Assembly: GCA_044449785.1 (NCBI GenBank)
Contig: JBIOII010000001.1
Location: 11,231-75,230 of the forward strand
Direction of reading: 5' to 3'
DNA: 64,000 nt
Source of the DNA: Candidatus Limnocylindrales bacterium
Lineage (GTDB): Bacteria > Chloroflexota > Limnocylindria > Limnocylindrales > CSP1-4
This document shows, one piece after another, positions 12,500-41,828 of the stretch. The translations under genes and the position numbers were made by a program. The first letter of the stretch is position 1; each line of letters opens with the position of its first letter. A model generated the notes under the pieces. It was not told where the DNA came from. It searched no databases and saw nothing but the letters and a program-made list of their open reading frames with translations.

Positions 12500-13120
12500 C
12501 TAGTCCTCGGCGTCCCTCGCGCGCCTCTCAGCCGAACGCGAGAGCGCGGCAGCGATGGCCATCGGGATTTTCGAAACCAGGAACCCAGCCAGGACCAGCG
12601 GCGCGGCGGTGAGGGCATTGAGCCGCCAGACGGTGCCGCTGCTGCCGACCGCGAGGGCGAGAACAAGGCTGAAACCGGCCACGGCCAGGAGCCAGGCCGG
12701 GCCGTGGGTACGGAGGACGCCGGTCAAGGCCGCCGCTACCGCTATGCCCAGGACGACGGCCAGGTAGGCGCCTGTCTCGGCATCCGAGCCGGTCGATACC
12801 TTCTGCGCGGCCAATACCTGGAACGGCTCCAGCCAGTTGAAGGAGAGCAAGATGCGAACGGCGATCAACGCTAGCGGCGCGTAACCGATGATGGCCGCGT
12901 ACTTGTCGTCTGTGTACTCGGGCACACCTCGCGACGACAGCCAGGTGACGCCGCCCCGCGACGACCATATGCGGACCAGCTGAGCGGAAAGGAACCAGGC
13001 CGGAAACCACCAGTAGCCTGCAATCAGCCCAGCCACCGCGAGAACGAACACGGTGTACGGCGATGGAACGTCGGCCAATGTGGTCGGAGAGGCTTGTTTC
13101 GCCCCCGTGGTGCCGGTCAT
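12500..13120 (-). CDS. hypothetical polytopic membrane protein (about 5-6 TM helices)
   Basis: 206 aa with multiple hydrophobic segments rich in W, Y and F (LAVAGLIAGYWWFPAWFL, LAVVLGIAVAAALTGVL, LLAVAGFSLVLALAVG, LVLAGFLVSKIPMAIAAAL). This composition is unlike the R/S/P-rich out-of-frame artefacts common here. It is one of the few minus-strand genes, sitting between ftsY and ffh. Confidence 0.5.
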   Translation of the reverse strand: MTGTTGAKQASPTTLADVPSPYTVFVLAVAGLIAGYWWFPAWFLSAQLVRIWSSRGGVTWLSSRGVPEYTDDKYAAIIGYAPLALIAVRILLSFNWLEPFQVLAAQKVSTGSDAETGAYLAVVLGIAVAAALTGVLRTHGPAWLLAVAGFSLVLALAVGSSGTVWRLNALTAAPLVLAGFLVSKIPMAIAAALSRSAERRARDAED

Positions 13121-13427
13121 AGGTCCCTTCGCGGAGCTGGCGTTGGAACGGCGGTTTCGATGCGGACTCTAGCGCACCGAAAGGGGGCGCCGGCCTCCGC
13201 TCGAGTCCGTACTAGGCCCAGCTTGCACCGGATGGCCGTAGAGCCGGAGATCGGGACGGGTGACGGAGCGAGGGCCGCGAACGGGGACCGCGAGCTTGGT
13301 GCCTCCTGTGCGCGTGGCGCTCGATGCGGTACACTCCGCGAGCCTTCGGTGCCGCCAGAATCCGCGGCCCAACGTCGCCCCTTCATGTCGGGGGCGGCGG
13401 GACGGATCAGGAGAGTCCCAGCCACCC

Positions 13428-14753
13428 ATGTTCGACGCCCTCAGCGACCGACTGCGCAAGACGCTCGGTGCCCTGACCGGGCACGGTCGCGTCAGCGCGG
13501 CCGACGTCGACGCGGCGATGCGCGAGGTCCGGCTGGCGCTCCTCGAGGCCGATGTCAACTTCAAGGTCGTCAAGGACTTCATCGCCCGCGTTCGTGAGCG
13601 CGCCGCCGGCACCGACATCCTCGAGAGCCTGACGGCCGGCCAGCAGGTCGTGAAGATTGTGAACGAGGAGCTGGTTGCGCTGCTCTCTGCCGGCGATCGA
13701 ACCTTCCGGTTGACCGGCAACCCTTCGGTCGTGCTCCTCGTCGGCCTCCAGGGCTCGGGCAAGACCACGAGCGCAGCCAAGCTCGCCCGGCATCTCCACA
13801 AGCAGGGTCGACGGCCGCTCATGGTGGCGGCGGACCCGTATCGTCCCGCCGCGGCCGACCAGCTCGAGACGCTCGGCAAGGCGCTGGATATCCCGGTGTA
13901 CCGCGCCCCGGCCGGGACGAACGTCCTCGCCATCGCAAAAGGCGGCCTTGATGCCGCCCGCAAACAGGTTCGCGACACGGTCATCCTAGATACGGCCGGC
14001 AGGCTGACCATAGATGCCCCACTGATGAAGGAGATCGCGGATCTCTCGGCGGCGGTGAAGGCGTCGGAGACGCTCCTGGTCGTCGACGCGATGACCGGCC
14101 AGGAAGCGGTCAACGTGGCCGAGGCGTTCCACGCCGCCGTCCCGGTCACCGGTCTGATCCTGACCAAGATCGACGGCGATGCGCGAGGCGGCGCGGCCCT
14201 CTCGATCAGCGCGGTCACGGGTTTGCCGGTCAAATTCCTCGGCACCGGCGAGAAGACCGACGCCCTCGAGCCGTTCCATCCGGACCGATTGGCCAGCCGG
14301 ATCCTCGGCATGGGCGATGTCCTGACCCTCATCGAGAGGGCGCAGGAGCATTACGACGAGAAGCAGGCCACAAAGATGGCCGAGAAGCTGCGCAAGAACA
14401 GCTTCACGCTCGAAGACATGCTGGACCAGATGGAGCAGGTCAGGAAAATGGGCCCGATGGGCCAGATCCTGGAGATGATCCCGGGCATGGGCGGTATGGC
14501 CAAGCAAGCCCAGGAATCGGTGGATCGGGGCGATCTCAAGCGCGTCGAGGCGATCATCCGGTCGATGACGCCCTCCGAGCGGCGCGAGCCAAGTATCCTG
14601 AACGGGGCCCGGCGGCGGCGCATCGCTCAGGGATCGGGCACGCGGCTGCAGGACGTCAACCAGCTCGTCAAGCAGTTCGGCGAGTTCCAGAAGGTAATGA
14701 AGCAGATGACCGGCGGTCGGCTTGGGCGGCGCATGCCGGGAATCTTCGGGTAG
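13428..14753 (+). CDS. ffh: signal recognition particle protein Ffh
   Basis: MFDALSDRLRKTL N-terminus, GLQGSGKTTSAAKLA Walker A, DTAGRL, and an M domain with Met-rich MGPMGQILEMIPGMGGMAK. ATG at 13428 is preceded by GGAGAG; the ORF track opens at 13260. Confidence 0.95.
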   Translation: MFDALSDRLRKTLGALTGHGRVSAADVDAAMREVRLALLEADVNFKVVKDFIARVRERAAGTDILESLTAGQQVVKIVNEELVALLSAGDRTFRLTGNPSVVLLVGLQGSGKTTSAAKLARHLHKQGRRPLMVAADPYRPAAADQLETLGKALDIPVYRAPAGTNVLAIAKGGLDAARKQVRDTVILDTAGRLTIDAPLMKEIADLSAAVKASETLLVVDAMTGQEAVNVAEAFHAAVPVTGLILTKIDGDARGGAALSISAVTGLPVKFLGTGEKTDALEPFHPDRLASRILGMGDVLTLIERAQEHYDEKQATKMAEKLRKNSFTLEDMLDQMEQVRKMGPMGQILEMIPGMGGMAKQAQESVDRGDLKRVEAIIRSMTPSERREPSILNGARRRRIAQGSGTRLQDVNQLVKQFGEFQKVMKQMTGGRLGRRMPGIFG

Positions 14754-14763
14754 GGGAGGCCAG

Positions 14764-16563
14764 ATGAGCGAGTATCAGAATCCTGGACGTGCGCGGCCGC
14801 CGGTCCAATCCGAGGTGCAAGGCACGGTCGTGCCGATTAGCGAGGCCTGGGCGGCGGGGGTCAACCCCATCCCGGTCTCGCCGCGCTCACGCCGGTTGCG
14901 ATGGGCGATCGCCGGAGCCGTCGTCACGTGCGTGGTCATCGCAAGCGCCGCCGGCGCGTTCGTGCTTTCCGGCGCGGCCGGGGCCAAGTCGCTCACTGCG
15001 AGTGCCGCTCCCAAGAACGCGATTGCGTTCCTGGAGGTCCGGACCGATCTGCCGGGCGACCAGCACGCCAACCTGGCCGACTTCATGAGCCACTTCCCGG
15101 GCTTCGCCGATCGCTCGCAGTTCGATAACGCTCTGGACGAGCTGCTCAACAAGCTGACCGCCGCGGTCTCGCCGGACCTCACATACTCGTCGGCCTTCAA
15201 GCCTTGGATGGAGGGCGAGGTTTCGGTCGCGTTGATGGACGTGGGCTCGATGGCGGGCATGATGTCCGGCGGTCCGATGATGTCTATCGACTCGCCGGCC
15301 CTCGCGAGCTTCACGCCGCCGAGTGCCGTCTCGATCTTCGCCCTCAAGGATCGAACCGCGGCTGAGAGCTGGGTAAGCGGCGAACTGACCCGCACCGGCT
15401 CGAAGGCCACGCCTCAGGCGTACGCTGGGACAACCCTCTATGTGATCGGCTCCGGCGCACAGGCGGGTGCGTATGCCTTCACCGACCAGGACCTGCTCGT
15501 GGGCACCGTAAACGGTGTCAAGGCCGCCCTCGACAGCAAGACCAACGGCTCGCTTGCCGACAACGCCAACTACCAGGCGGCGATGAAGTCGCTTTCCGGC
15601 GACAGCCTGGCCCGGTTCTATATCGACTCGAGTGCCATGTTCAGCGCTGTGGCCAATGACTTGAAGGCTGCTGCCAGCTCAATGGCCGGCAGCGGCAGGG
15701 TAGTTCCGCCGATGGTGGGCATGTCCTCAAGTGGCGTCCCCGCCTGGGTCGCGGGTTCCGTGCGGGCGGAGTCGAACGATATGGTCGTCAATCTCGTCGA
15801 ACCGGGCGTTGCCGGCAGCTCGACCGACAACCACACCAGCCGGCTAGGCTCTGTCCTGCCCGGCAGCACCGTCGGCGTCTTCGAAGTGCATTCGATCGGA
15901 GCGCTGGTCCTGAATGGGCTGTCGGCCCTTCAGTCGCAGCTGCCGGCCACTTCCCCCGACCCGGTGCAGGGCATCAAAGACGGTCTGGCGGCCATCGGCG
16001 GTCTCGACTGGCTCGGTGACGGGGTTGCGGTCGTGACCAGGAACGGCTCCACCTATGGCGGCGGGCTCGTTGCGGAAGCCACGGACGCCTCGACGGCCGC
16101 ATCGAAGGTGGCACTCGTCAGGCTCGCGACACTGGCCGGCGGCAACCTGCAGATCGCCAGCCGCGCCGAGACCTACAAGGGCGTGGATATCACGGTGCTG
16201 TCGATCCCGATCGGGTCGGGCCGTGCCCCGGTGGAGATCGCCGTGGCCGCGAAGGACGACCTGATCCTCGCCGGATACACGGACGCGTTCGTCAAGGCCG
16301 TCATCGACACTACGGCGTCGACATCCCTCGCTGCTCAGTCGGACTACTCGACCGTGATGGCGGCCGCCGGCGCCAGCAACCAGGAATCCTTCTACATCAA
16401 CGTCCCCGCCCTGGAGGACCAGATCGGCCAGGCCGTCTTCGCGGAGTCGCCATCCCGATGGACGGTGGACTACAAGCCCTACTTCGATCACATCGGCGGC
16501 GTCGGCTACTCGGTCGTCGGCGGCAATACGGTCACCCTGCGGCTCGTCGTCACGGCCAGATAG
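14764..16563 (+). CDS. hypothetical membrane-anchored extracytoplasmic protein (single N-terminal TM; possibly DUF3352-like)
   Basis: The ATG at 14764 is the first start downstream of the ffh stop (14753) and is preceded by GGGAGG; the ORF track opens at 14722 inside ffh. TM segment WAIAGAVVTCVVIASAAGAFVL, then a domain of about 540 aa with no recognisable catalytic motifs. Coding-like composition throughout. Confidence 0.55.
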   Translation: MSEYQNPGRARPPVQSEVQGTVVPISEAWAAGVNPIPVSPRSRRLRWAIAGAVVTCVVIASAAGAFVLSGAAGAKSLTASAAPKNAIAFLEVRTDLPGDQHANLADFMSHFPGFADRSQFDNALDELLNKLTAAVSPDLTYSSAFKPWMEGEVSVALMDVGSMAGMMSGGPMMSIDSPALASFTPPSAVSIFALKDRTAAESWVSGELTRTGSKATPQAYAGTTLYVIGSGAQAGAYAFTDQDLLVGTVNGVKAALDSKTNGSLADNANYQAAMKSLSGDSLARFYIDSSAMFSAVANDLKAAASSMAGSGRVVPPMVGMSSSGVPAWVAGSVRAESNDMVVNLVEPGVAGSSTDNHTSRLGSVLPGSTVGVFEVHSIGALVLNGLSALQSQLPATSPDPVQGIKDGLAAIGGLDWLGDGVAVVTRNGSTYGGGLVAEATDASTAASKVALVRLATLAGGNLQIASRAETYKGVDITVLSIPIGSGRAPVEIAVAAKDDLILAGYTDAFVKAVIDTTASTSLAAQSDYSTVMAAAGASNQESFYINVPALEDQIGQAVFAESPSRWTVDYKPYFDHIGGVGYSVVGGNTVTLRLVVTAR

Positions 16564-16610
16564 CTCGCCGGTCGCACGCCGTATGTAACTCTGGAGGAAG
16601 AGACTCGCAC

Positions 16611-16889
16611 ATGGCAGTTCGAATTCGCCTCAGCCGCGTCGGGGCCACCAAGCAGCCGGCCTACCGCGTCGTCGTCATGGACGGCCGAAGCGCTCGCGAC
16701 AGCCGCGCCATCGAGACCCTCGGCCACTACGACCCCAGGGCCGACCCGATCGCGTTCGTGGTCGACGCGGAGAAGGTCAAGAAGTGGCTCGCCCAGGGGG
16801 CGCTGCCGTCCGACACGGTTTCAAGGCTTCTCCAGAACGCCGGGATAATCCCCAAGGTGGCTCGTAAGGTCGGCCCGACCGCCAAGTAG
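16611..16889 (+). CDS. rpsP: 30S ribosomal protein S16
   Basis: MAVRIRLSRVGATKQPAYRVVVMD...HYDP with RBS GGAGGAAG 11 nt upstream. The ORF track opens at 16458; ATG is at 16611. Confidence 0.95.
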   Translation: MAVRIRLSRVGATKQPAYRVVVMDGRSARDSRAIETLGHYDPRADPIAFVVDAEKVKKWLAQGALPSDTVSRLLQNAGIIPKVARKVGPTAK

Positions 16890-16942
16890 GTCGAGCCGGC
16901 GCCGCGTCCCACCTAGTCTGAAGACAGAACAAGAGGAAGCGA

Positions 16943-17176
16943 ATGGCAGCCCAGGATCTGGTCGCGTATGTCGCCCGCAATCTGGTCGACGACCCAGACG
17001 CTGTCGTAGTCGAGGTCCACACCGGGCCCGACGGGACGGTCATCGAGCTCCACGTCGCCGAGGATGACATGGGCAAGGTGATCGGCCGGAACGGCAGCGT
17101 CGCCAAGGCGCTCCGAACCTTGCTCAAGGTCATGTCCGCTCGCGACGGTGAGCCCGTCTCCCTGGAAATCAGCTGA
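16943..17176 (+). CDS. KH-domain RNA-binding protein (UPF0109/YlqC family)
   Basis: 77 aa with GKVIGRNGSVAKALRTLL (KH GXXG loop). Conserved position between rpsP and rimM. Confidence 0.8.
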   Translation: MAAQDLVAYVARNLVDDPDAVVVEVHTGPDGTVIELHVAEDDMGKVIGRNGSVAKALRTLLKVMSARDGEPVSLEIS

Positions 17177-17186
17177 GCCTCCGGCT

Positions 17187-17774
17187 GTGAGCGCCGGGGA
17201 CCGGCTCGTGGTCGGCCAGGTGCGTGGCTTCCACGGGTTGCGTGGAACGGTTCGTATCGAATCCCTGACCGACCGCGCCGATGAGCGCTTTTCCGTGGGT
17301 CGAACCCTATTCAGAGAGGGCGGCGACCTCCGGCTGACGATCGTCGAGGCGAGCGCCGACGGCGTCGGTTGGCGCGTCCGGTTCGCGGAGGTTCCCGACC
17401 GGACCGCAGCCGAGACGCTTCGGGACGCCTATCTCGAGGCCGTGGTGGCCCCCGGCGAGGAATTGCCGCGCGGCGAGTTCTACTGGCACGAGGTCGTCGG
17501 GGCCAGGGTGAGCGACGTGGACGGCACTCATCTGGGCGACGTCGTCGACATCTACCGTGCCGGCGGAGCCGAGGTCGTGGTCGTACACGGTCCGGCCGGC
17601 GAGCTGGACATTCCGCTGGTCCGATCGATCGTCCGGATCTTCGCGCCTGCCCGGGCCGAGATCGTGGTCGACGGCGATGCCCTCGGGTTGCGCGCGAAGG
17701 ACCCGGACGCGGGCGAGACAGACGCCGAATCCCAGGGCGCAGTCGAGGCCGATGAGGCGCACGAACCGCAATGA
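17187..17774 (+). CDS. rimM: 16S rRNA processing protein RimM
   Basis: LVVGQVRGFHGLRGTVRIESLTD (RimM N-terminal barrel) and a PRC barrel (EFYWHEVVGARVSDVDGTHLGDVVDIYRAGGAEVVVV). GTG at 17187; the ORF track opens at 17148 inside the KH gene. Confidence 0.85.
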   Translation: MSAGDRLVVGQVRGFHGLRGTVRIESLTDRADERFSVGRTLFREGGDLRLTIVEASADGVGWRVRFAEVPDRTAAETLRDAYLEAVVAPGEELPRGEFYWHEVVGARVSDVDGTHLGDVVDIYRAGGAEVVVVHGPAGELDIPLVRSIVRIFAPARAEIVVDGDALGLRAKDPDAGETDAESQGAVEADEAHEPQ

Positions 17775-18601
17775 CGCAAGATGCAGAGGCGGGTTCCGGG
17801 GTAGCCGTCGACGAGTCGGTGCCGCCGGCCTCGCGCGCCCCGCTCGAGATCGAGATCTTGACCCTCTTCCCGGGCATGTTCTCCGGGCCGCTCGCCGAGA
17901 GCATCCCGGGCCGCGTCCAGACGCGCGGCCTGGCCACCGTGCGGGTCCACGACCTGCGCCAGTGGGGCCTGGGCCGTCACAAGACGGTCGATGACTACAC
18001 CTACGGTGGGGGAGCGGGGATGGTCCTGCGGCCCGAGCCCGTGGCGGCCGCCCTGGAGGTCCTGCGACGGCCGGATAGCACGGTCATCCTGCCCGACCCG
18101 GGCGGCGAAGTCTTCGCGCAGGCCCGCGCCCACGATCTTGTGGAACGCGGCCACTTGATCATCCTGTGCCCACGGTACGAGGGCGTGGACCACAGGATCC
18201 GAGCCATGGTGGACCTGGAGCTGTCGATCGGGGACTACGTCCTATCCGGCGGTGAGATCCCCGCGCTGGTCGTCGTCGACGCGATCCTGCGGCTGCTGCC
18301 CGGGGCGATCGATGCCGAATCCACCGCCGAAGAGTCGTTCAAGGCCGGCCTGCTCGAGTACCCGCAGTACACGCGTCCGCCGGAGTTTGGTGGCGTGGCG
18401 GTGCCGTCGGTGCTGACCAGCGGCCACCACGATGCCGTCCGGAAGTGGCGCCTGAAGGAAGCATTGCGCCGGACGCTGAGGGGACGGCCGGAGTTGCTCA
18501 AAGCCCGGACTCTGAGCCGGGAAGAGGCGGAGCTGCTGGCCGAAGTCCGGGCGGACGAACGAGCCCCCGCCGAGCCGGCCGCGGATCTGAACGCCGAGTA
18601 G
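17771..18601 (+). CDS. trmD: tRNA (guanine37-N1)-methyltransferase TrmD, with a C-terminal extension of about 30 aa
   Basis: LEIEILTLFPGMF, DDYTYGGGAGMVL and GDYVLSGGEIPALVVVDA are SPOUT/TrmD motifs. ATGA overlap with rimM. Confidence 0.9.
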   Translation: MTQDAEAGSGVAVDESVPPASRAPLEIEILTLFPGMFSGPLAESIPGRVQTRGLATVRVHDLRQWGLGRHKTVDDYTYGGGAGMVLRPEPVAAALEVLRRPDSTVILPDPGGEVFAQARAHDLVERGHLIILCPRYEGVDHRIRAMVDLELSIGDYVLSGGEIPALVVVDAILRLLPGAIDAESTAEESFKAGLLEYPQYTRPPEFGGVAVPSVLTSGHHDAVRKWRLKEALRRTLRGRPELLKARTLSREEAELLAEVRADERAPAEPAADLNAE

Positions 18602-18688
18602 CGGCCTCGAGCCAGAGTCGAGTCTCGCGGGTGATTTCGTTGACATACTCTGGCATCGCCATTCGTTGACCATTGCAGGGAGGTCCGA

Positions 18689-19246
18689 ATGACGATCCCG
18701 CAGCTGTTGGGGGAGCTGAAGCTGGTGGTCGATGAGGAGCGGGCCGCCGAGCGCACCGATTTCCGGCGCATCTACTCCGAGACCTGGTCGGATGTCTTTC
18801 GCTACGCCTGGGTACTGCTGCGGCACCGCGAAGATGCAGAGGACGTTGCCTTGGAGGCATTCCGCCGGGCCCTGGAGTCGTGGAATGCCGGGCACGGGCC
18901 GAAGGGTGACGCTCTGCCGTGGTTGTTTCTGATAACTCGGCGAGTCGCGATAGACCGGCTTCGCCGCAGGCGTCTGATCGGCTGGCTCTCACTCGAACGC
19001 GCGCCAGAACCCCAGATATCGGCCGACGAAGCCGCCTTCCGGCGCTCGGAGGTCTGGATCTGGTTCGAGCAGCTTTGCCGCGCGATTCCGGCCAACCAGC
19101 GGGAGGCGTTGCTCCTGCGCTTCCAGTTCGATCTATCCGACACTGAGGCCGCGAAGATCACGGGGACCTCGGCCGCGAATGTCAGAACGAGGGTCTCACG
19201 CGGCCTGGTGGCGCTTCGAGTTCGAGCCGGGGGTATGGAGCGATGA
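18689..19246 (+). CDS. ECF-family RNA polymerase sigma-70 factor
   Basis: Region 2 (FRYAWVLLRHREDAEDVALEAF) and region 4 HTH (EALLLRFQFDLSDTEAAKITGTSAANVRTRVSRGLVAL). 185 aa. RBS GGGAGG. The stop overlaps the downstream ORF start (ATGA). Confidence 0.85.
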   Translation: MTIPQLLGELKLVVDEERAAERTDFRRIYSETWSDVFRYAWVLLRHREDAEDVALEAFRRALESWNAGHGPKGDALPWLFLITRRVAIDRLRRRRLIGWLSLERAPEPQISADEAAFRRSEVWIWFEQLCRAIPANQREALLLRFQFDLSDTEAAKITGTSAANVRTRVSRGLVALRVRAGGMER

Positions 19247-20655
19247 GCAACCGGGACGGCTTCGAGATCGACGAAGAGGCTGTTGCCCGCGCGATCAAGA
19301 GGCGGATGAGCGGCCTCGACCCGTACCTTCCGAGTCCGCCACCTTACGAGACGGTGGACCCGAAGGCACGGCTTGCGGGCGCCGCCGGCTCCGGCCCGAG
19401 GGTGTCTTCGCGCCTTCGGCCGAACTTCGGCGCTTCTGTGGCGCTGGTCGGGATCGGGCTCGTCGTGGCCTTGGTGATGGCTTCCGGAGCCTTCCGAACG
19501 ACGCCGACGGTCGGGCCGTCCAGGAGCGTCCCGCCTGCCCCATCCCGGACGTTGGCGCCGTCATCGGTCAGCTCGGAAGTCGCTCAGGTTACGCCGACGC
19601 CGCCTCTGGCGACCGCCTCGCTGCCGCCGGGCGTCATCTTCAGCGGGCCGGTTCAGAACGTGGAATGGTCGCCGGGTGGAACCAGGATCGCGATCACCGA
19701 AGGCGCCAGCGGCAGCTCAATCGACGTCAAGATCCTGACCGTCGGCGGCCGGACGATCGATACGATAAGCGCCTGGTCGCTGGGCTGGCTGGACGACGAT
19801 TCGTACGTCGCAGTCGGGGAGTCGGGGGCCTTCGTCGGGTACGTGGGCAGTTCGGAACGCGAGGCGATCCCGGGCGACTACGTGGTTTTCATCCCCGCCA
19901 GCACGGCAGGCGCCGTCGCCCTGGAGCTCAACGTGACCGGCAGCAACCAGTACGTGATCTGGAGCGCGGCGGCCGGCCTCAGCGCCCCCAGAGATGGAGT
20001 GCCGGTAGCGTTCTCGCCAGATGGAACGCTGCTTGCGGTGGTCCACTATCCCCGCGATTGCTGCGCCGGGCTGCCCTCTCCGGAGCCGACGAACCCTCCG
20101 GGCCCCACGACACTGGATATCGTCCGCACGGACTCCGGCAAGTCCGTCCACACCACTGGAGACGTCGTCATGGCCTACGGACTGCCGGTCTCGTTCAGCC
20201 CCGACAGCCGGTTGGTCGCCTTCCGCCGGGACCCCGCGAACGGCCCCGAGGACCTGGGCATCCTCGACATAGCCACCGGCAAGGTCTGGGCGGTGGAGTC
20301 CGGCGGACTCGATATCGTGCCGCAGCACTCACTTGCGTGGCTGGACAACACTCATCTGGATCTGCGGTCGGCGGGGCCTGCCGGCGCTGCGCCGGTTGGT
20401 CTGAACGTCGTGGTCACGTATTGGCCGGCGGATGTCGCCGCCAGGAGTGCCTCCGCTCGCGGAGACCTGGCGACCGCGCGAACCGGCTCTACGCAGATAG
20501 TGATCCAGGGTGGTGGCCGGCAGGTGACGCGAGATATTCTCGGGACCTTCGACTCAGTGCAGCTCGAGTGGTCCCCGGATGGATCTGCGCTCGTGGTCGT
20601 CTGCAATACCTACGACCTCTATACGCCCGGGCAGGTGTTCCTCTTCAAGTTCTGA
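19243..20655 (+). CDS. putative membrane-anchored anti-sigma factor with an extracytoplasmic PD40/TolB-like beta-propeller domain
   Basis: Translationally coupled to the ECF sigma gene. A cytoplasmic N-terminus of about 60 aa, one TM (SVALVGIGLVVALVMASGAF), then an extracytoplasmic domain with repeated W/FSPDG motifs (EWSPGGTRIAI, FSPDGTLLAV, SFSPDSRLVAF, EWSPDGSALVV). No canonical HxxxCxxC zinc-binding anti-sigma motif, so the assignment is by context. Confidence 0.5.
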   Translation: MSNRDGFEIDEEAVARAIKRRMSGLDPYLPSPPPYETVDPKARLAGAAGSGPRVSSRLRPNFGASVALVGIGLVVALVMASGAFRTTPTVGPSRSVPPAPSRTLAPSSVSSEVAQVTPTPPLATASLPPGVIFSGPVQNVEWSPGGTRIAITEGASGSSIDVKILTVGGRTIDTISAWSLGWLDDDSYVAVGESGAFVGYVGSSEREAIPGDYVVFIPASTAGAVALELNVTGSNQYVIWSAAAGLSAPRDGVPVAFSPDGTLLAVVHYPRDCCAGLPSPEPTNPPGPTTLDIVRTDSGKSVHTTGDVVMAYGLPVSFSPDSRLVAFRRDPANGPEDLGILDIATGKVWAVESGGLDIVPQHSLAWLDNTHLDLRSAGPAGAAPVGLNVVVTYWPADVAARSASARGDLATARTGSTQIVIQGGGRQVTRDILGTFDSVQLEWSPDGSALVVVCNTYDLYTPGQVFLFKF

Positions 20656-20828
20656 CTGTCCGGACGCCGCAGGTCGTGTGATGCCGCAGGTCGGATCGGT
20701 TGTGCTATCCTTCGCCGTCGGTCGCGCTGGCGGCCTATTCCATTTGCCTTCACCGCGGCCGGGCTGCGGGCCACATAAGCTATGAGCGCAGCGCAGCCGC
20801 GCCGCTTGACGAAGAGTAGGGACCGATC

Positions 20829-21179
20829 GTGAACGTGCTCGAAGAGATCACCCAGGAACAGATCCGGACGGACATCCCCGAGCTCGCGCCGGGCGACACG
20901 GTCAAGGTTTCGGCCCGAGTGATCGAAGGCACCCGCGAGCGCGTCCAGGTCTTCGAAGGCACGGTCATGCGCTTGCGCGCCGGCGGCATCCAGAAGTCCA
21001 TCACGGTCCGTCGCATCGCCAGCGGCGTCGGCGTGGAGCGCACCTTCAAGGTGAACAGCCCCCGCATCGAGAAGATCGAAGTCGTCCGCCACGGCCAGGC
21101 CCGCCGCGCGCAGCTGTACTTCCTGCGCAAGCGCATCGGCAAGGCCGCGACGCTGCGCGAGCGCCGCGTCAACAGCTAG
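20829..21179 (+). CDS. rplS: 50S ribosomal protein L19
   Basis: L19 signature across 116 aa ([23 protein letters not shown]...RRAQLYFLR). GTG start. Confidence 0.95.
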
Positions 21180-21247
21180 CGAGCCGGAGCGACATGCCGG
21201 GCGCCCGTCGCTCCTCAACCTCGGTCGAGGACCCCGTCCGATCGCCC

Positions 21248-22033
21248 ATGGCGGCGCGGCGGGGTCCCACTGTTTCCGCCCCGGGTTCCAGCGGCGGGCG
21301 GCTCAGGGTCGAGGCCTGGCACAGGTCGCGGCTCGATCCCGATTTCGCCGAAGAGCGGATCCTGTGGTCACGCGGGTACCGCTACGTTGCCGGGATCGAC
21401 GAGGTCGGGCGGGGTTGCCTCGCCGGGCCCGTTGCGGCCGCTGCCGTGATCCTGCCTCCTGACTGGCAGCCGGCCGGTCTGCGGGACTCCAAGCTGCTCA
21501 AGCCCGAGGAACGGCGGCGCCTCGACGGCCAGATCAGGGCACGGGCGCTGGCCTGGTCGATCGCGTTCGTCGGGCCCGAGCTTATCGACCGCATCAACAT
21601 CCTTCAGGCCACTTTGCTGGCGAGCACGCTCGCGGCGGCACGGCTGCCGATTCGGCCGGACGCACTCCTGCTCGACGCGGTTTCGCTGCCAGAAGTGCCG
21701 CTCCACCAGCGTGTCCTGGTTTCCGCCGATCGGTTGTGCGCTTCCGTAGCGGCGGCGTCGGTGATCGCCAAAGTGGCCCGCGACGCGTTGATGCAGGAAT
21801 ACGAGCTGATGTACCCCGGCTACGACCTGGGCCGGAACAAGGGTTATGCCGCACCGGAGCATCGGGCGGGGCTCGAGGCCTACGGACTCACCCCGATCCA
21901 CCGGCTTTCGTTCGCGCCGTGCCGTGATCGCGAGCAAATGACACTGTGGCAGGATGGCGCCGCGGACGCGAGCGACGCAGCCGAGGATGCCGACGAGACG
22001 GACGACCTCGTGGCAGCGGAGCTGCCGGATTAG
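21248..22033 (+). CDS. rnhB: ribonuclease HII (start uncertain; the ORF opens at 21194)
   Basis: AGIDEVGRGCLAGPVAAAAVIL (catalytic D-E), DSKLL. rplS-rnhB synteny. The preceding N-terminus of about 45 aa is unusual, so the start could be at 21194 or 21248. Confidence 0.9.
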   Translation: MAARRGPTVSAPGSSGGRLRVEAWHRSRLDPDFAEERILWSRGYRYVAGIDEVGRGCLAGPVAAAAVILPPDWQPAGLRDSKLLKPEERRRLDGQIRARALAWSIAFVGPELIDRINILQATLLASTLAAARLPIRPDALLLDAVSLPEVPLHQRVLVSADRLCASVAAASVIAKVARDALMQEYELMYPGYDLGRNKGYAAPEHRAGLEAYGLTPIHRLSFAPCRDREQMTLWQDGAADASDAAEDADETDDLVAAELPD

Positions 22034-22050
22034 CGCCCGCCGGAGCGGGC

Positions 22051-22446
22051 TTGCGGCGGACTGAGCGACAAGTTTCGGGCGACTCGGCGGAGTCGCTGGT
22101 CGCCGATCGGCTGGCGGCCCGTGGCTGGACGATCCTCGGTCGGAACGTACGCCTCGGTCGGAGTGAGCTCGACATTCTCGCGGCAGACCCGGGCCCGCCG
22201 GCGCGGCTCGTCATCGTGGAAGTCCGGTGGCGCCGCTCCCGGGCGTTCGGCGGACCCGAGGAAACATTCGATCACAGGAAGCGCACTCAACTCCGAATTG
22301 GCCTCGCGCGCCTCCTCGAAGGCGGCCTGCTGCCCGACGGTTCGCCGCTGCCGAGGCTGCCGGTCGCGGTCGATTTCGCGGTGGTCGAGCCAGATCCCGC
22401 CGGAAACCCGATCGCTCGGTTGTACAGGAACGCACTGGAGGGTTGA
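22051..22446 (+). CDS. yraN: YraN family endonuclease (UPF0102)
   Basis: GESLVADRLAARGWTILGRNVRLGRSELDILAADP...LVIVEVRWRRS matches UPF0102, a PD-(D/E)xK-like fold. TTG at 22051 just after the rnhB stop; the ORF track opens at 21946 inside rnhB. Typical rnhB-yraN pairing. Confidence 0.8.
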   Translation: MRRTERQVSGDSAESLVADRLAARGWTILGRNVRLGRSELDILAADPGPPARLVIVEVRWRRSRAFGGPEETFDHRKRTQLRIGLARLLEGGLLPDGSPLPRLPVAVDFAVVEPDPAGNPIARLYRNALEG

Positions 22447-22487
22447 CGCAGGCCAGATCTAGGCCACCCCGCGGGCCGAAGCCGGCG

Positions 22488-24179
22488 CTACCAGTCGATG
22501 AGCTGCCGCGACGCGGCGTGAATGGCGACAATGACGGCACGCCCGTCGCCGGCGGGGCTCATCAGGGCGACCTGGGCGCCGTCGATCATCACGGTCGGAT
22601 CCATGGCTACCTGGACGAGCCGCCTGCCTGAGAAGGTGAGGGTCAGGATGACGCCCTCCTGGGCCTGGACGTCGTGATTGAGGTCGAACAGCAGATCGCC
22701 CATCGAGTAATCGACGAACGCCGGGCCATCCGGTCCGTCGACCGACTGGATTGCTCCCACCCAGTGGGAGTGGCTGCCGAGCACCAGGTCCGCGCCCGCG
22801 GCGATGAACGCGGCCGCTTCGTTCTTCTGGTCGCTGCTGAGCGCGTAGCTATATTCCTGTCCCCAGTGGGGCATCACGATCACGATGTCGGCGCCAGCTG
22901 TGCGCGCGGCTTTGATGTCGGCCGTGATCGACGCCGGGTCCAGCGGCGCGGCTCCCGGGTGATCCCCGGCGGCCCAGTTGTCCGAACCGACGGCCGAGTA
23001 GGCCAGCACGGCGACGCGCAGGCCGGCGGCGTTGAGCCAGGCCGGCCGGCGAGCCGCCGTCGTGTCCGCCCCGGCGCCTGCGTGGGCAATGCCGATCGCA
23101 TCGAGGTTCTTGCAAGTGTCGAGCACGCCCTGGTCGCCGCCGTTGCGGATGTGATTGTTCGCCAGCGAGACGGCGTCGATCCCGGCATCTCGCAGGCCGG
23201 CCAGCAGGGCCGGGTCAAACGTGAACACCAGACTGTTGGCGCGGTAGGCAAAGTCGTCCGGGGCGGATCCCTCGAGGTTTACGAGGGCGATATCCGCCTG
23301 CTCGAACTTGGCGCGGAGCGCTCCTGCCCCGCCCGTGTCGCGAGCGACCGCCAGTGACGCCCCCTGCCAGCCGCAGCACTCGTAGTGGGCGACCTCGGCG
23401 TACCCGCCGGACCACGGGAAATCTGGCCCGTAGCCAAGAGAAACCGCCTTGACGTAAACGGCCCGGTCCAGATTCACGTCGCCGCCGGCGGCAAGCGTCC
23501 ACTCGCTGGCCGTCGAGAAGGCCGGTGGGGCAGTCGACGCCACCATCAGAGGCCAGCGCGCGACGTCTCGGAGCCTGTCCGAGCCGAATAGCGCGACGCC
23601 GTCCACGGACAGGGCCCGGACGTCCGGCGTCACGTCGTCGACTGCCAGCAACCCGAGCGTCGAAGGCGATGCTCGGACGGCGGCTTTCACCTGTGCCGCC
23701 GAGAGCACCCGGATGCCGGCGGCCGGTGGAATACGGAAGGCCTTGGCGAGCGGGTCGGCGACGCCGTCCGCCACGACAATCGAACTGAACTCCGTGTCGG
23801 AAACCGCGTCGGCCAGTCCGGCCCACAGCCTCGCGACCTCCACGAGGCGGATGCTGAACGGCGCCGACCAGAACGAGACGACCGGCACGATCGGCTCGAG
23901 CGAAGCCGTGACAGGAGTGGCCGTCTGCGAGGGAGCGGGGTTGGCGGCCGGCGATTGCGCGACCGCGGGGGCGGCCGAGAGGCTGGGCGTGGCTGCCGCC
24001 ACCTCGATGTTCGACGGCGGGGCGCCGTGGACGCGCGATATGAGAACACCCGATGAGATCACGGCAATTACTGCGACGACGCCGCCGGCAAGCAGGAGCG
24101 CGCCGCCGACGGCGGTTCTCGAGGTGCCGCCCGACGCGCCGTCTGCTTTCCTGGGTCCTGTGAGCGCCGGGACCTTCAT
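22488..24179 (-). CDS. CapA/PGA_cap family metallophosphatase (poly-gamma-glutamate capsule biosynthesis-like) with an N-terminal membrane anchor and an Ala/Pro-rich N-domain
   Basis: N-terminal TM (LLLAGGVVAVIAVISSGVLI). C-terminal domain of about 350 aa with WTLAAGGDVNLDR, ADIALVNLE, LANNHIRNGG, VMPHWGQEY and GSHSHW, characteristic of CapA metallophosphoesterases. It is transcribed divergently from rpsB. Confidence 0.75.
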   Translation of the reverse strand: MKVPALTGPRKADGASGGTSRTAVGGALLLAGGVVAVIAVISSGVLISRVHGAPPSNIEVAAATPSLSAAPAVAQSPAANPAPSQTATPVTASLEPIVPVVSFWSAPFSIRLVEVARLWAGLADAVSDTEFSSIVVADGVADPLAKAFRIPPAAGIRVLSAAQVKAAVRASPSTLGLLAVDDVTPDVRALSVDGVALFGSDRLRDVARWPLMVASTAPPAFSTASEWTLAAGGDVNLDRAVYVKAVSLGYGPDFPWSGGYAEVAHYECCGWQGASLAVARDTGGAGALRAKFEQADIALVNLEGSAPDDFAYRANSLVFTFDPALLAGLRDAGIDAVSLANNHIRNGGDQGVLDTCKNLDAIGIAHAGAGADTTAARRPAWLNAAGLRVAVLAYSAVGSDNWAAGDHPGAAPLDPASITADIKAARTAGADIVIVMPHWGQEYSYALSSDQKNEAAAFIAAGADLVLGSHSHWVGAIQSVDGPDGPAFVDYSMGDLLFDLNHDVQAQEGVILTLTFSGRRLVQVAMDPTVMIDGAQVALMSPAGDGRAVIVAIHAASRQLIDW

Positions 24180-30298: not shown

Positions 30299-31404
30299 GC
30301 CTGGACGGGGTGCTCTTCTGGGTAGTCGCGATCCCGCTGTTGCTGCTCGTCCTGATTCCGCTGGTGATGGTCCACGAGCTCGGCCATTTCATCATGGCCC
30401 GGCTGGCCGGGATCCGCGTTTTGGAATTCGGGCTCGGCTTCCCTCCCCGCGCCAAGGTCATCGGTCATGACCACGAGACGGAGTACACGCTCAATTATCT
30501 GCCGATCGGCGGCTTCGTGAGGCTCGAGGGAGAGGAGACGAATTCGGACGATCCGAGAGCGTTCACCAATGCGCCGCTTGCCAAGCAGCTGATCGTGCTC
30601 GTGGCCGGTGTGTTCATGAACCTCGTGACCGCGACCGTTCTCTTCTTCATCGTCGCCTGGGCATTCAACCCGCGCGTCCAGCCGACGATCGCCGGGGTCG
30701 TAGCCAATTCACCGGCGCAGTCGGCAGGTCTGCAGGTGGGCGACGTCCTGATATCGCTCAACGGCAAGACGTACGCCGCGCCTTCGGTTCTGGAGTTCAC
30801 GAACGCCGACAACGTCGATCAATGGAGCACCGAGCTCCGGGCCCACGCCGGGCAGACGATCGACCTCGTTGTAGCCGACTCGTCCGGCAAGCAGCGCAAC
30901 CTGGTCGTGACGCTGCGGGTTCCGACGGCGAATGAAGGTGCGCTCGGCGTCCAGCTCGGGGCTTCGCTCGTCAACTCTCCCGGTGATCCGGTGAGTGCGG
31001 TCGGGATGGCCGTCGGCGGCACCGGCAGGGCCATGGACTTGATCATCGGAGCGCTCGGCGACATCGGGCGCCAGCTGTTCACCAACCCGTCACAGGCACC
31101 GCCGGGCGTACAGGGTCCCGTGGGCATCGCCTCGGACGTGGGCCACGCGGCCTCGCAGCCCGACGCCGTGATGCTCTTCCTGCTTCTTGCGGCCGTGCTG
31201 TCGGCCAACCTGGCTCTCGTCAACATCCTGCCCGTTCCCGTGCTGGACGGCGGCAAGATGGTGATCATGGTCGTGAAACGGATCTTCGGCGCCAGGGGCG
31301 TGAGCGCGGTCGAGACATTCGCCTACGTCGCCAGCTTCGCGCTCCTGTTAGCGTTCGTAGGCTGGATAACCTACTTCGACATCGTGCGCGGCGGCGCTCC
31401 GTAG
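30295..31404 (+). CDS. rseP: RIP metalloprotease RseP (site-2 protease, single PDZ)
   Basis: [16 protein letters not shown] (HExxH in TM1), a PDZ domain ([13 protein letters not shown]), and a C-terminal LDGG motif ([13 protein letters not shown]). ATG at 30295 overlaps the dxr stop; the ORF track runs from 29605. Confidence 0.85.
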
Positions 31405-41558: not shown

Positions 41559-41828
41559 GTGCCGCTCGCGCGGGAGACGAAGGAACAGGTTATTTCGGAG
41601 TACGCCGTCAAGGATGGCGACACGGGCTCAGCAGAGGTGCAGATTGCGCTCCTGACCGAGAGGATCAAGGAGCTTACGGAGCACCTGCGAGGCTTTCCGA
41701 AGGACAACCAGTCCCGCCGCGGCCTCCTCAAGCTCGTCGGACAGCGACGCAGACTTCTGGCATATCTTGTCAAGAAGGACAACGCTCGCTATCGGGCCGT
41801 CATCGCACGGCTGGGACTGCGCCGCTAG
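41559..41828 (+). CDS. rpsO: 30S ribosomal protein S15
   Basis: 89 aa. [21 protein letters not shown]...[21 protein letters not shown] start. Confidence 0.95.

Follow-up and report, generated by a model that had tools for sequence, protein, structure and literature searches.

A probable ECF sigma/anti-sigma cassette in an apparently permissive gap between trmD and rplS of Candidatus Limnocylindrales

In a 64-kb stretch of a metagenome-assembled genome (MAG) of Candidatus Limnocylindrales (Chloroflexota), which we refer to as the window and whose positions are used for all coordinates, two genes, one for an extracytoplasmic function (ECF) sigma factor and one for a membrane protein, stand between trmD and rplS. 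How such a pair comes to lie within a neighbourhood that otherwise resembles the trmD operon of E. coli (rpsP-rimM-trmD-rplS), and whether its place there ties it to the synthesis of ribosomes, are the questions that this locus raises. A reading made from the sequence alone had proposed envelope signalling that is embedded in, or co-regulated with, the genes of ribosome maturation. That proposal found no support in the comparison with related genomes, since the inserted genes carry a promoter-like motif of their own, rplS has an independent upstream element, the slot between trmD and rplS is polymorphic, and similar gene pairs reside at other sites. The insert is probably a self-contained cassette in which an ECF sigma factor is joined with a membrane anti-sigma factor of its own, a member of a small family that is confined to Chloroflexota of the Limnocylindrales type and without a link to the ribosomal genes; its position beside them would represent a gap that is permissive for insertion and divides two transcription units, rather than a functional connection.

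The plus strand of the region carries, in this order, ffh, a DUF3352 gene, rpsP, a KH gene of the KhpA type, rimM, trmD, the sigma open reading frame (ORF), the partner ORF, rplS and rnhB (Table 1), and rnhB is followed by a UPF0102/YraN-type ORF whose family name was taken from homologous loci. From the trmD stop to the rplS start the window has 2,227 nt, as compared with 54-147 nt in 11 proteobacterial loci that were fetched with the same query, and the two ORFs fill this gap as the 2.1-kb module that the sequence-only reading had described. They are coupled, again as described, through an ATGA overlap of start and stop codons at 19243-19246. The product of the first ORF contains the domains Sigma70_r2 (38.6 bits, cut-off 24) and Sigma70_r4_2 (39.9 bits, cut-off 25.7) and no other, passes the NCBIfam model TIGR02937 (sigma70-ECF; 58.8 bits, cut-off 42.9) and on these scores is assigned to the ECF (group IV) sigma-70 factors. 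The actinobacterial SigE family (TIGR02983) is its top-scoring named subfamily, with 88.3 bits over residues 20-180, yet this score lies below the model's cut-off of 141.55, the host belongs to the Chloroflexota and the homologues form a tight cluster of their own. The solved structures nearest to it are those of SigW, SigE, SigK and SigL (E 1e-7 to 1e-5). Homologues of the sigma factor number 77 at 50-100% identity, beyond which identity drops to 34-37%, and the protein is 100% identical to NCBI protein P0049 from a Candidatus Limnocylindrales MAG. Together with the 48 homologues of the partner, these matches indicate that both are real genes and not chance ORFs.

The contents of the slot differ widely among the relatives of the window. 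With trmD as an unbiased anchor, the slot was followed through species-representative genomes and JGI metagenome contigs, on which the window proteins and the alternative cargos were mapped; 23 of the loci listed were informative and Limnocylindrales-like, and the frequencies given here are approximate. Twelve of them have an empty slot, in which tblastn and blastn searches (E<=10) detected no remnants of the cassette. The same sigma gene is present in eight, accompanied by a propeller partner as in the window or by a partner with a CAP domain, and the rest hold a short-chain dehydrogenase (SDR) gene, genes for a SUFU-like protein and a TPR protein, or an aminoacyl-tRNA synthetase gene (Table 1). 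Look-ups anchored on the proteins add slot-resident propeller cassettes in L020, L031/L032 and L033 and an Asp-box-like version in L021/L022, and the propeller version was found in at least seven further loci (L001, L020, L031, L032, L033, L034 and L035). The sequence-only reading had considered the interruption unusual. Uninterrupted trmD-rplS pairs do indeed account for 12 of the 23 relatives listed, but roughly 40% of those listed have this sigma gene in the slot, and the same insertion is to that extent largely routine in the lineage. The trmD-rplS gap is a general insertion hot spot, in which the placement of the cassette is lineage-typical but polymorphic.

Some of the history of the slot can be read from the proteins in and around it. 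A neighbour-joining tree of eight flanking proteins interleaves occupied and empty genomes, and is star-like and without support values, so that gains and losses cannot be counted from it. The slot-resident sigma factors are 57-82% identical to one another and the flanking proteins 76-87% identical, values that fit long residence with repeated loss and in-place replacement of the sensor better than a recent arrival. The sigma factor of L020, which is paired with a propeller, is 79% identical to that of L021, which is paired with an Asp-box-like ectodomain, as against 73% to that of the window. Similar pairs also exist away from ribosomal genes. In L019, L023/L024 and L027, sigma factors 63-66% identical to the window's and propeller partners 40-41% identical lie in non-ribosomal neighbourhoods, and in L025/L026 (1-4886) a 54%-identical sigma factor with a different partner adjoins genes for an IS21-type transposase and IstB, a resolvase and a RepSA-type replication protein.

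The cassette appears to carry its own promoter to these different places. A bipartite motif, TTGACA-N16-TTCGTT (in the window TTGACATACTCTGGCATCGCCATTCGTT), lies 21 nt before the start codon of the sigma gene, with a Shine-Dalgarno sequence, GGGAGG (18678-18683), in between. It is found at the same distance before the sigma gene in ribosomal-slot and unrelated contexts, between which the remaining upstream sequence is dissimilar. When 62 loci were fetched, TTGACA-N15-17-TTCGT was present in 19 of the 21 that bear the sigma gene and in none of the 41 that do not, and each of the 19 has it once only, on the coding strand and just upstream of the sigma gene. Of the loci with the sigma gene, only L045 and L020 deviate from the exact pattern; L020, whose assembly is prone to indels, reads cGACA and has a spacer of 15 nt. 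The -10 half of the motif contains the CGT core that is typical of ECF promoters. The copy before the sigma gene is the sole exact one in the 64-kb window, and we infer that it is probably an autoregulatory, sigma-dependent promoter of the cassette. ECF sigma factors often regulate their own promoters, and promoters of this kind have been identified from bipartite motifs that are over-represented ahead of ECF genes grouped into clusters (PMC7776599). The only other candidate, a site with two mismatches at 41746-41773 on the minus strand, which lies between truB/ribF and pnp and is oriented opposite to both, is within chance expectation and was set aside.

On the other side of the insert, rplS seems to be equipped with signals of its own. 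The 130 nt before this gene are highly conserved in 10 relatives, whether or not an insert lies upstream, and TGTGnTAnnnT, within which the extended -10-like element of Table 1 falls, is invariant in all 10. Downstream of this element the leader can form three conserved hairpins at 20720-20735 (the terminator-like site of the consensus scan), 20753-20769 and 20786-20805, and a stretch within it, TGCCTTC (20745-20751), is complementary enough to the Shine-Dalgarno region AGTAGGGA (20815-20822) for the two to pair. An RNAalifold consensus of eight sequences has 29 pairs, of which only one is compensatory, a covariation too sparse to prove a structure. The region resembles the L19 leader of Rfam (RF00556) in being conserved, structured, located before rplS and able to pair with the Shine-Dalgarno sequence; nevertheless, no Rfam match, to RF00556 or to any other family, was obtained at E<=1 over 13000-23000, and the leader therefore cannot be filed under a known family. 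We regard 20700-20828 as a candidate lineage-specific autoregulatory leader of L19. Situated after the trmD stop and ahead of this putative promoter and leader, the insert thus disrupts no unit. The otherwise universal operon would then be interrupted here because the lineage has a permissive gap ahead of the promoter and leader that belong to rplS, and not because of regulatory rewiring.

The core gene order of the E. coli trmD operon is thus retained, but the region differs from that operon in the -10-like element ~125 nt upstream of rplS, in the acceptance of cargo by the trmD-rplS gap and in the DUF3352 gene between ffh and rpsP. The DUF3352 gene is present at this position in every related Limnocylindrales locus that spans the region, and represents a second, fixed interruption, here of the usual ffh-rpsP neighbourhood.

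The properties of the partner are consistent with a role as regulator of the sigma factor. Its sole hydrophobic segment comprises residues 62-84 (Kyte-Doolittle mean 2.46), and the positive-inside rule, with five K/R before this span and two after it, predicts an N-in/C-out orientation, in agreement with the single-pass topology proposed earlier. An AlphaFold2 model based on a 27-sequence alignment (mean pLDDT 72) divides the protein into the parts that are listed in Table 1. The short cytoplasmic part has a helix at ~11-28, the motif GLDPYLPSPPPYETV and an Arg-rich stretch, while the extracytoplasmic linker differs in both length and sequence among homologues. Residues 130-470 are modelled as an all-beta domain of 30 strands with pLDDT ~90, probably a propeller of about seven blades if judged from the strand count.

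Several lines of evidence agree with the PD40/TolB-like propeller and the W/FSPDG motifs that had been noticed in the sequence. The partner has four such repeat motifs (WSPGGT at 142, FSPDGT at 257, FSPDS at 318 and WSPDGS at 443), and in a Foldseek search of the PDB nearly all of the 50 best matches listed were propellers with a probability of 1.00. They include WDR91, WDR5, an archaeal YVTN propeller, TolB and acylaminoacyl peptidase, with E values of 1e-10 to 1e-8 and 10-16% identity. TolB structures are matched at E ~1e-8, but the matches to WD40 and YVTN propellers are as good or better, the partner is without the N-terminal domain of TolB, and its propeller is anchored in the membrane through an anti-sigma-like N-terminus. 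As modelled, the ectodomain is a generic propeller rather than specifically a TolB. The Pfam model PD40 (PF07676) gives the window protein 20.4 bits, slightly below the cut-off of 20.9, and gives four family members (P0135, P0139, P0140 and P0143) 26.5-43.7 bits, above the cut-off; at the level of the family the propeller is PD40-like.

It is the N-terminal module, and not the propeller, that remains constant when loci are compared. In all loci with a homologous sigma gene the next gene begins at or very near the sigma stop and encodes the same module, with the consensus DExxxAxxIKxRMxGLDxYIPxxPxFxxIE and an Arg-rich stretch, followed by one membrane helix and by ectodomains that can be entirely different. 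The ectodomain is a PD40 propeller in the window, L001, L020, L019, L023, L031 and L033, a propeller with a PF04314 domain in L027, Big_5 with CAP in L005, CAP alone in L006, a domain with SxDGSTW (Asp-box-like) repeats in L021/L022 and another repeat domain in L025/L026. A word-indexed search with the N-terminal alignment gave five fragments only, and an exhaustive profile search was used in its place; among 1.84 billion proteins it found 17 matching representative clusters, the ectodomains of which are propellers, CAP domains or unassigned. The pairing of the module with an adjacent, co-oriented ECF sigma gene holds in every locus examined. Since the module is constant and the ectodomains differ between loci, the conserved unit is the sigma factor with its cytoplasmic tether, and the sensor is exchangeable. 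The N-terminus of ~60 amino acids, constant across at least four kinds of outer domain, is likely to be the part that binds the sigma factor, and the good, if indirect, evidence of position, coupling and conservation predicts that the partner is a membrane anti-sigma factor.

Its affiliation with known anti-sigma factors is less apparent. Residues 1-61 contain neither Cys nor His and hence no HxxxCxxC, which places the protein outside the zinc-binding (ZAS) subtype and agrees with the earlier remark that a canonical zinc-binding domain is absent. Ten N-terminal segments gave no match to a Pfam anti-sigma domain even at E<=10, and a class I anti-sigma domain (zf-HC2 or RskA_N type) is not recognizable in the model, which has one helix only before the membrane span. 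The sequence-only reading had described the anti-sigma architecture as atypical. This description is apt for the N-terminal module, which falls outside the described anti-sigma families, and overstated for the remainder, since anti-sigma factors most often have a single transmembrane helix (82 ECF groups) and are of very diverse types (PMC7826278). The papers searched for beta-propeller or PD40 anti-sigma factors and for sigma factors of the Limnocylindria contained nothing specific, and none of them describes this sigma/partner family.

Some of these observations can also be arranged into other explanations. The position of the cassette might be functional, in that it is transcribed mainly by read-through from rpsP-KH-rimM-trmD and on into rplS, whereby either the basal supply of the sigma and anti-sigma factors or the output of L19 would be tied to ribosome synthesis. 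A terminator scan detected no terminator-like site between the trmD stop and the sigma gene, which are separated by 87 nt only; given that none was seen after trmD, it is likely that some transcription runs on into the cassette, and a common transcript with the ribosomal block is possible. The cassette has moreover been kept in the slot in several diverged relatives, even with a changed ectodomain, and this retention among relatives whose flanking proteins are no more than 76-87% identical is compatible with plain vertical inheritance or with positional selection. The -35 half of the cassette's motif, TTGACA, is the housekeeping consensus, so the motif could be a hybrid or a housekeeping-type promoter, and no further copy by which a regulon might be defined was found within the 64-kb window. 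These points, and the lack of any known anti-sigma domain that matches the N-terminal module, whose assignment comes from position, coupling and conservation, weigh against the view of the insert as a self-contained sigma/anti-sigma cassette. They have to be set against a motif that goes with the sigma gene to non-ribosomal sites, an rplS element and leader that are conserved with or without an insert, a slot that is empty in half of the listed relatives and filled with unrelated cargo in others (in one case by a gene on the opposite strand), and the off-slot location of sigma factors 63-66% identical to the window's. On this balance we consider a functional position unlikely.

It is quite improbable that the partner is not an anti-sigma factor at all but an envelope protein transcribed together with the sigma gene, be it as a target of the sigma factor or as a TolB-like structural protein, with the sigma factor controlled by other means. 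Such an interpretation would accommodate the absence of a known anti-sigma domain or zinc motif and the short cytoplasmic part with only one confidently predicted helix, as well as the occurrence of the same propeller without the N-terminal module in P0021, P0022, P0027 and P0036, where it follows a lipoprotein-like signal sequence and is encoded away from sigma genes. It accords poorly with the finding that conservation among the partners of this sigma family is confined to their first 60 residues, the ectodomains having been swapped, with the maintenance of the start/stop overlap, and with a topology that is the commonest among anti-sigma factors (PMC7826278). We give hardly any credence to the idea that the cassette is a mobile or horizontally transferred island which entered the operon recently and by chance. 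The patchy distribution over the tree of flanking genes, the clean empty sites and the IS21 transposase, resolvase and RepSA genes beside the 54%-identical sigma gene might suggest such an event, but the insert lacks the marks of a mobile element or genomic island: no convincing direct or inverted repeats or target-site duplications flank it in the window, the ORF list and Pfam scan revealed no integrase or transposase gene inside it, and its GC content of 0.65-0.69 matches the 0.64-0.72 of the flanks. The divergence of the slot-resident sigma factors likewise points to long residence with losses.

The preferred reading, a self-contained sigma/anti-sigma cassette, has well-known counterparts. 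RseA and RsiW have a class I anti-sigma domain and are subject to regulated intramembrane proteolysis. As in the sigmaE/RseA system of E. coli and the sigmaW/RsiW system of B. subtilis, the sigma gene of the window is followed by a coupled gene for a single-pass, N-in membrane protein with a likely cytoplasmic sigma-binding part and an outer sensor, the promoter is probably autoregulated, and a protease of the RseP type with M50 and PDZ domains is encoded. The differences are that the cytoplasmic part has only ~60 residues with one clear helix, no HxxxCxxC and no match to a Pfam anti-sigma domain, that the ectodomain is a beta-propeller, and that proteolytic activation is assumed. In its short, zinc-free cytoplasmic peptide for putative sigma binding and its single membrane span the partner can be placed, by description, beside CnrY of Cupriavidus (ECF291) and RsbN of Streptomyces, the partner of BldN (compare PMC7826278). 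With the BldN-family model TIGR02952 the window's sigma factor reaches 54.3 bits, far under the cut-off of 206. CnrY depends on a separate sensor protein, whereas the partner in the window has a sensor domain fused to it.

By analogy with systems of the RseA/RsiW type, the N-terminal tether of the partner would hold the sigma factor inactive at the membrane until an extracytoplasmic cue, acting on the propeller, brings about its release. The release would probably proceed by regulated proteolysis, in which a cut at site 1 precedes an intramembrane cut made by the RseP-type M50/PDZ protease, and the freed sigma factor would then transcribe its own operon from the TTGACA-N16-TTCGTT promoter, and a regulon besides. 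The window encodes, between dxr and ispG (GcpE), a site-2 protease of the RseP/RasP type with Peptidase_M50 and PDZ domains (Table 1), which could plausibly process the putative anti-sigma factor.

As to the cue, a few observations hint at metals or thiols. A loop of the propeller contains His268, which is invariant in 27 sequences, and Cys273-Cys274, of which Cys274 is nearly invariant, with GCDGC in place of the two cysteines in four of the sequences; the part of the loop that follows (274-285) has pLDDT <50, and the motif may represent a redox or metal site. In L023 (2853-4773) and L024 (35-1101) the pair lies directly after genes for a cupredoxin, a multi-pass membrane protein and a heavy-metal-associated (HMA) protein, with a response regulator and a histidine kinase farther upstream, and the PF04314 domain that is inserted in the L027 partner (P0045) bears the JGI label 'copper(I)-binding protein'. 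A link to copper was nonetheless kept as a low-probability lead only, in view of the different upstream genes of L019 and L027, the sigma factors of which are 88-90% identical to that of L023. A more elaborate proposal can be built from such elements, namely that the trmD-rplS gap is a maintained site for sensor cassettes, at which one sigma factor with its 60-residue membrane tether persisted during a radiation at the family level while the outer domain (PD40 propeller, Big_5 with CAP, CAP, Asp-box-like repeats) was swapped in place several times, that read-through provides a basal level of the pair linked to growth rate, and that the His-x4-Cys-Cys loop (CxxC in some) serves as an extracytoplasmic thiol or metal sensor. 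We hold this proposal, taken as a whole, to be rather unlikely.

Three other genes of the window may be mentioned for their own interest. Between the yraN-like gene and rpsB lies a PGA_cap (CapA-like) gene on the minus strand, the product of which is anchored in the membrane at its N-terminus and contains a linker of low complexity. A PNPase-like ORF contains an RNase_T domain (PF00929, a DEDD exonuclease) at residues 254-406, inserted between the first and second RNase PH modules, which is an unusual architecture for a PNPase. An ORF with the N- and C-terminal domains of TruB and an FAD synthetase (RibF) domain is either an apparent truB-ribF fusion or two adjacent genes that were merged in the ORF list.

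Table 1. Features of the trmD-rplS region and of other parts of the window, and contents of the slot in related loci (counts are among the 23 informative loci listed)
Feature	Window position, or locus	Strand	Evidence or remark
ffh	ends 14753	+	
DUF3352 gene, 613 aa	14722-16563	+	between ffh and rpsP
rpsP	ends 16889	+	
KhpA-type KH gene	16943-17176	+	
rimM	17148-17774	+	
trmD, upstream slot border	17771-18601	+	final gene of the rpsP-KH-rimM-trmD block; Pfam tRNA_m1G_MT 188.7 bits
Putative cassette promoter, TTGACA-N16-TTCGTT	18640-18667	+	recurs before the sigma gene in all contexts
ECF (group IV) sigma-70 family sigma factor (predicted), 185 aa	18689-19246	+	Pfam, TIGR02937
Partner gene, 470 aa	19243-20655	+	48 homologues
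Partner residues 1-61, predicted cytoplasmic N-terminal module, putative sigma-binding (anti-sigma) segment	19243-19425	+	
Partner residues 62-84, predicted single transmembrane helix	19426-19494	+	Kyte-Doolittle; AlphaFold2 helix 63-80
Partner residues 85-128, predicted extracytoplasmic disordered Pro/Ser/Thr-rich linker	19495-19626	+	pLDDT <50 over 75-124
Partner residues 129-470 and stop codon, predicted extracytoplasmic PD40-type beta-propeller	19627-20655	+	AlphaFold2, Foldseek
Propeller loop VVHYPRDCCAG, His268...Cys273-Cys274	20044-20064	+	conserved in 27 sequences
TGcTATCCT, extended -10-like element, putative rplS promoter	20703-20711	+	conserved in 10 relatives
Conserved rplS leader, ~115 nt	20712-20828	+	62 invariant alignment columns
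rplS (ribosomal protein L19), downstream slot border	20829-21179	+	Pfam Ribosomal_L19 147.6 bits
rnhB	21194-22033	+	
PGA_cap (CapA-like) gene, 563 aa	22488-24179	-	
RseP/RasP-type site-2 protease gene	~30301-31404	+	Peptidase_M50, PDZ
ORF with TruB and RibF domains, 621 aa	39548-41413	+	
PNPase-like ORF, 862 aa	41944-44532	+	
Slot empty, 150-475 nt including rplS leader (n=12)	L002, L003, L004, L016, L037, L038, L040, L041, L042, L046, L047, L050		
Slot with same sigma and propeller partner (n=3)	L001, L034, L035		
Slot with same sigma and CAP-type partner (n=5)	L005, L006, L036, L045, L049		
Slot with SDR gene, then contig end (n=1)	L048 5262-5915		arrangement as upstream of the L006 sigma gene
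Slot with SUFU-like protein plus a TPR protein, unrelated cargo (n=1)	L039 2700-4561		
Slot with class II (Lys/Asp/Asn-type) aminoacyl-tRNA synthetase, unrelated cargo (n=1)	L044 2513-4006	-	opposite strand
SDR gene upstream of sigma gene	L006 3237-3944		

The main value of these comparisons might be that they correct an attractive but unsupported interpretation, as nothing ties the cassette to ribosome maturation. They also bring to light a small anti-sigma N-terminal module, as predicted here, that has not been described previously and could enter the classifications of ECF systems, and a candidate L19 leader that stands outside Rfam. The motif TTGACA-N16-TTCGTT can be put to the test in searches for the regulon in Limnocylindrales genomes. 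For the family itself, the cassettes would provide a clean natural case in which sensor domains are swapped on a constant pair of sigma factor and tether.

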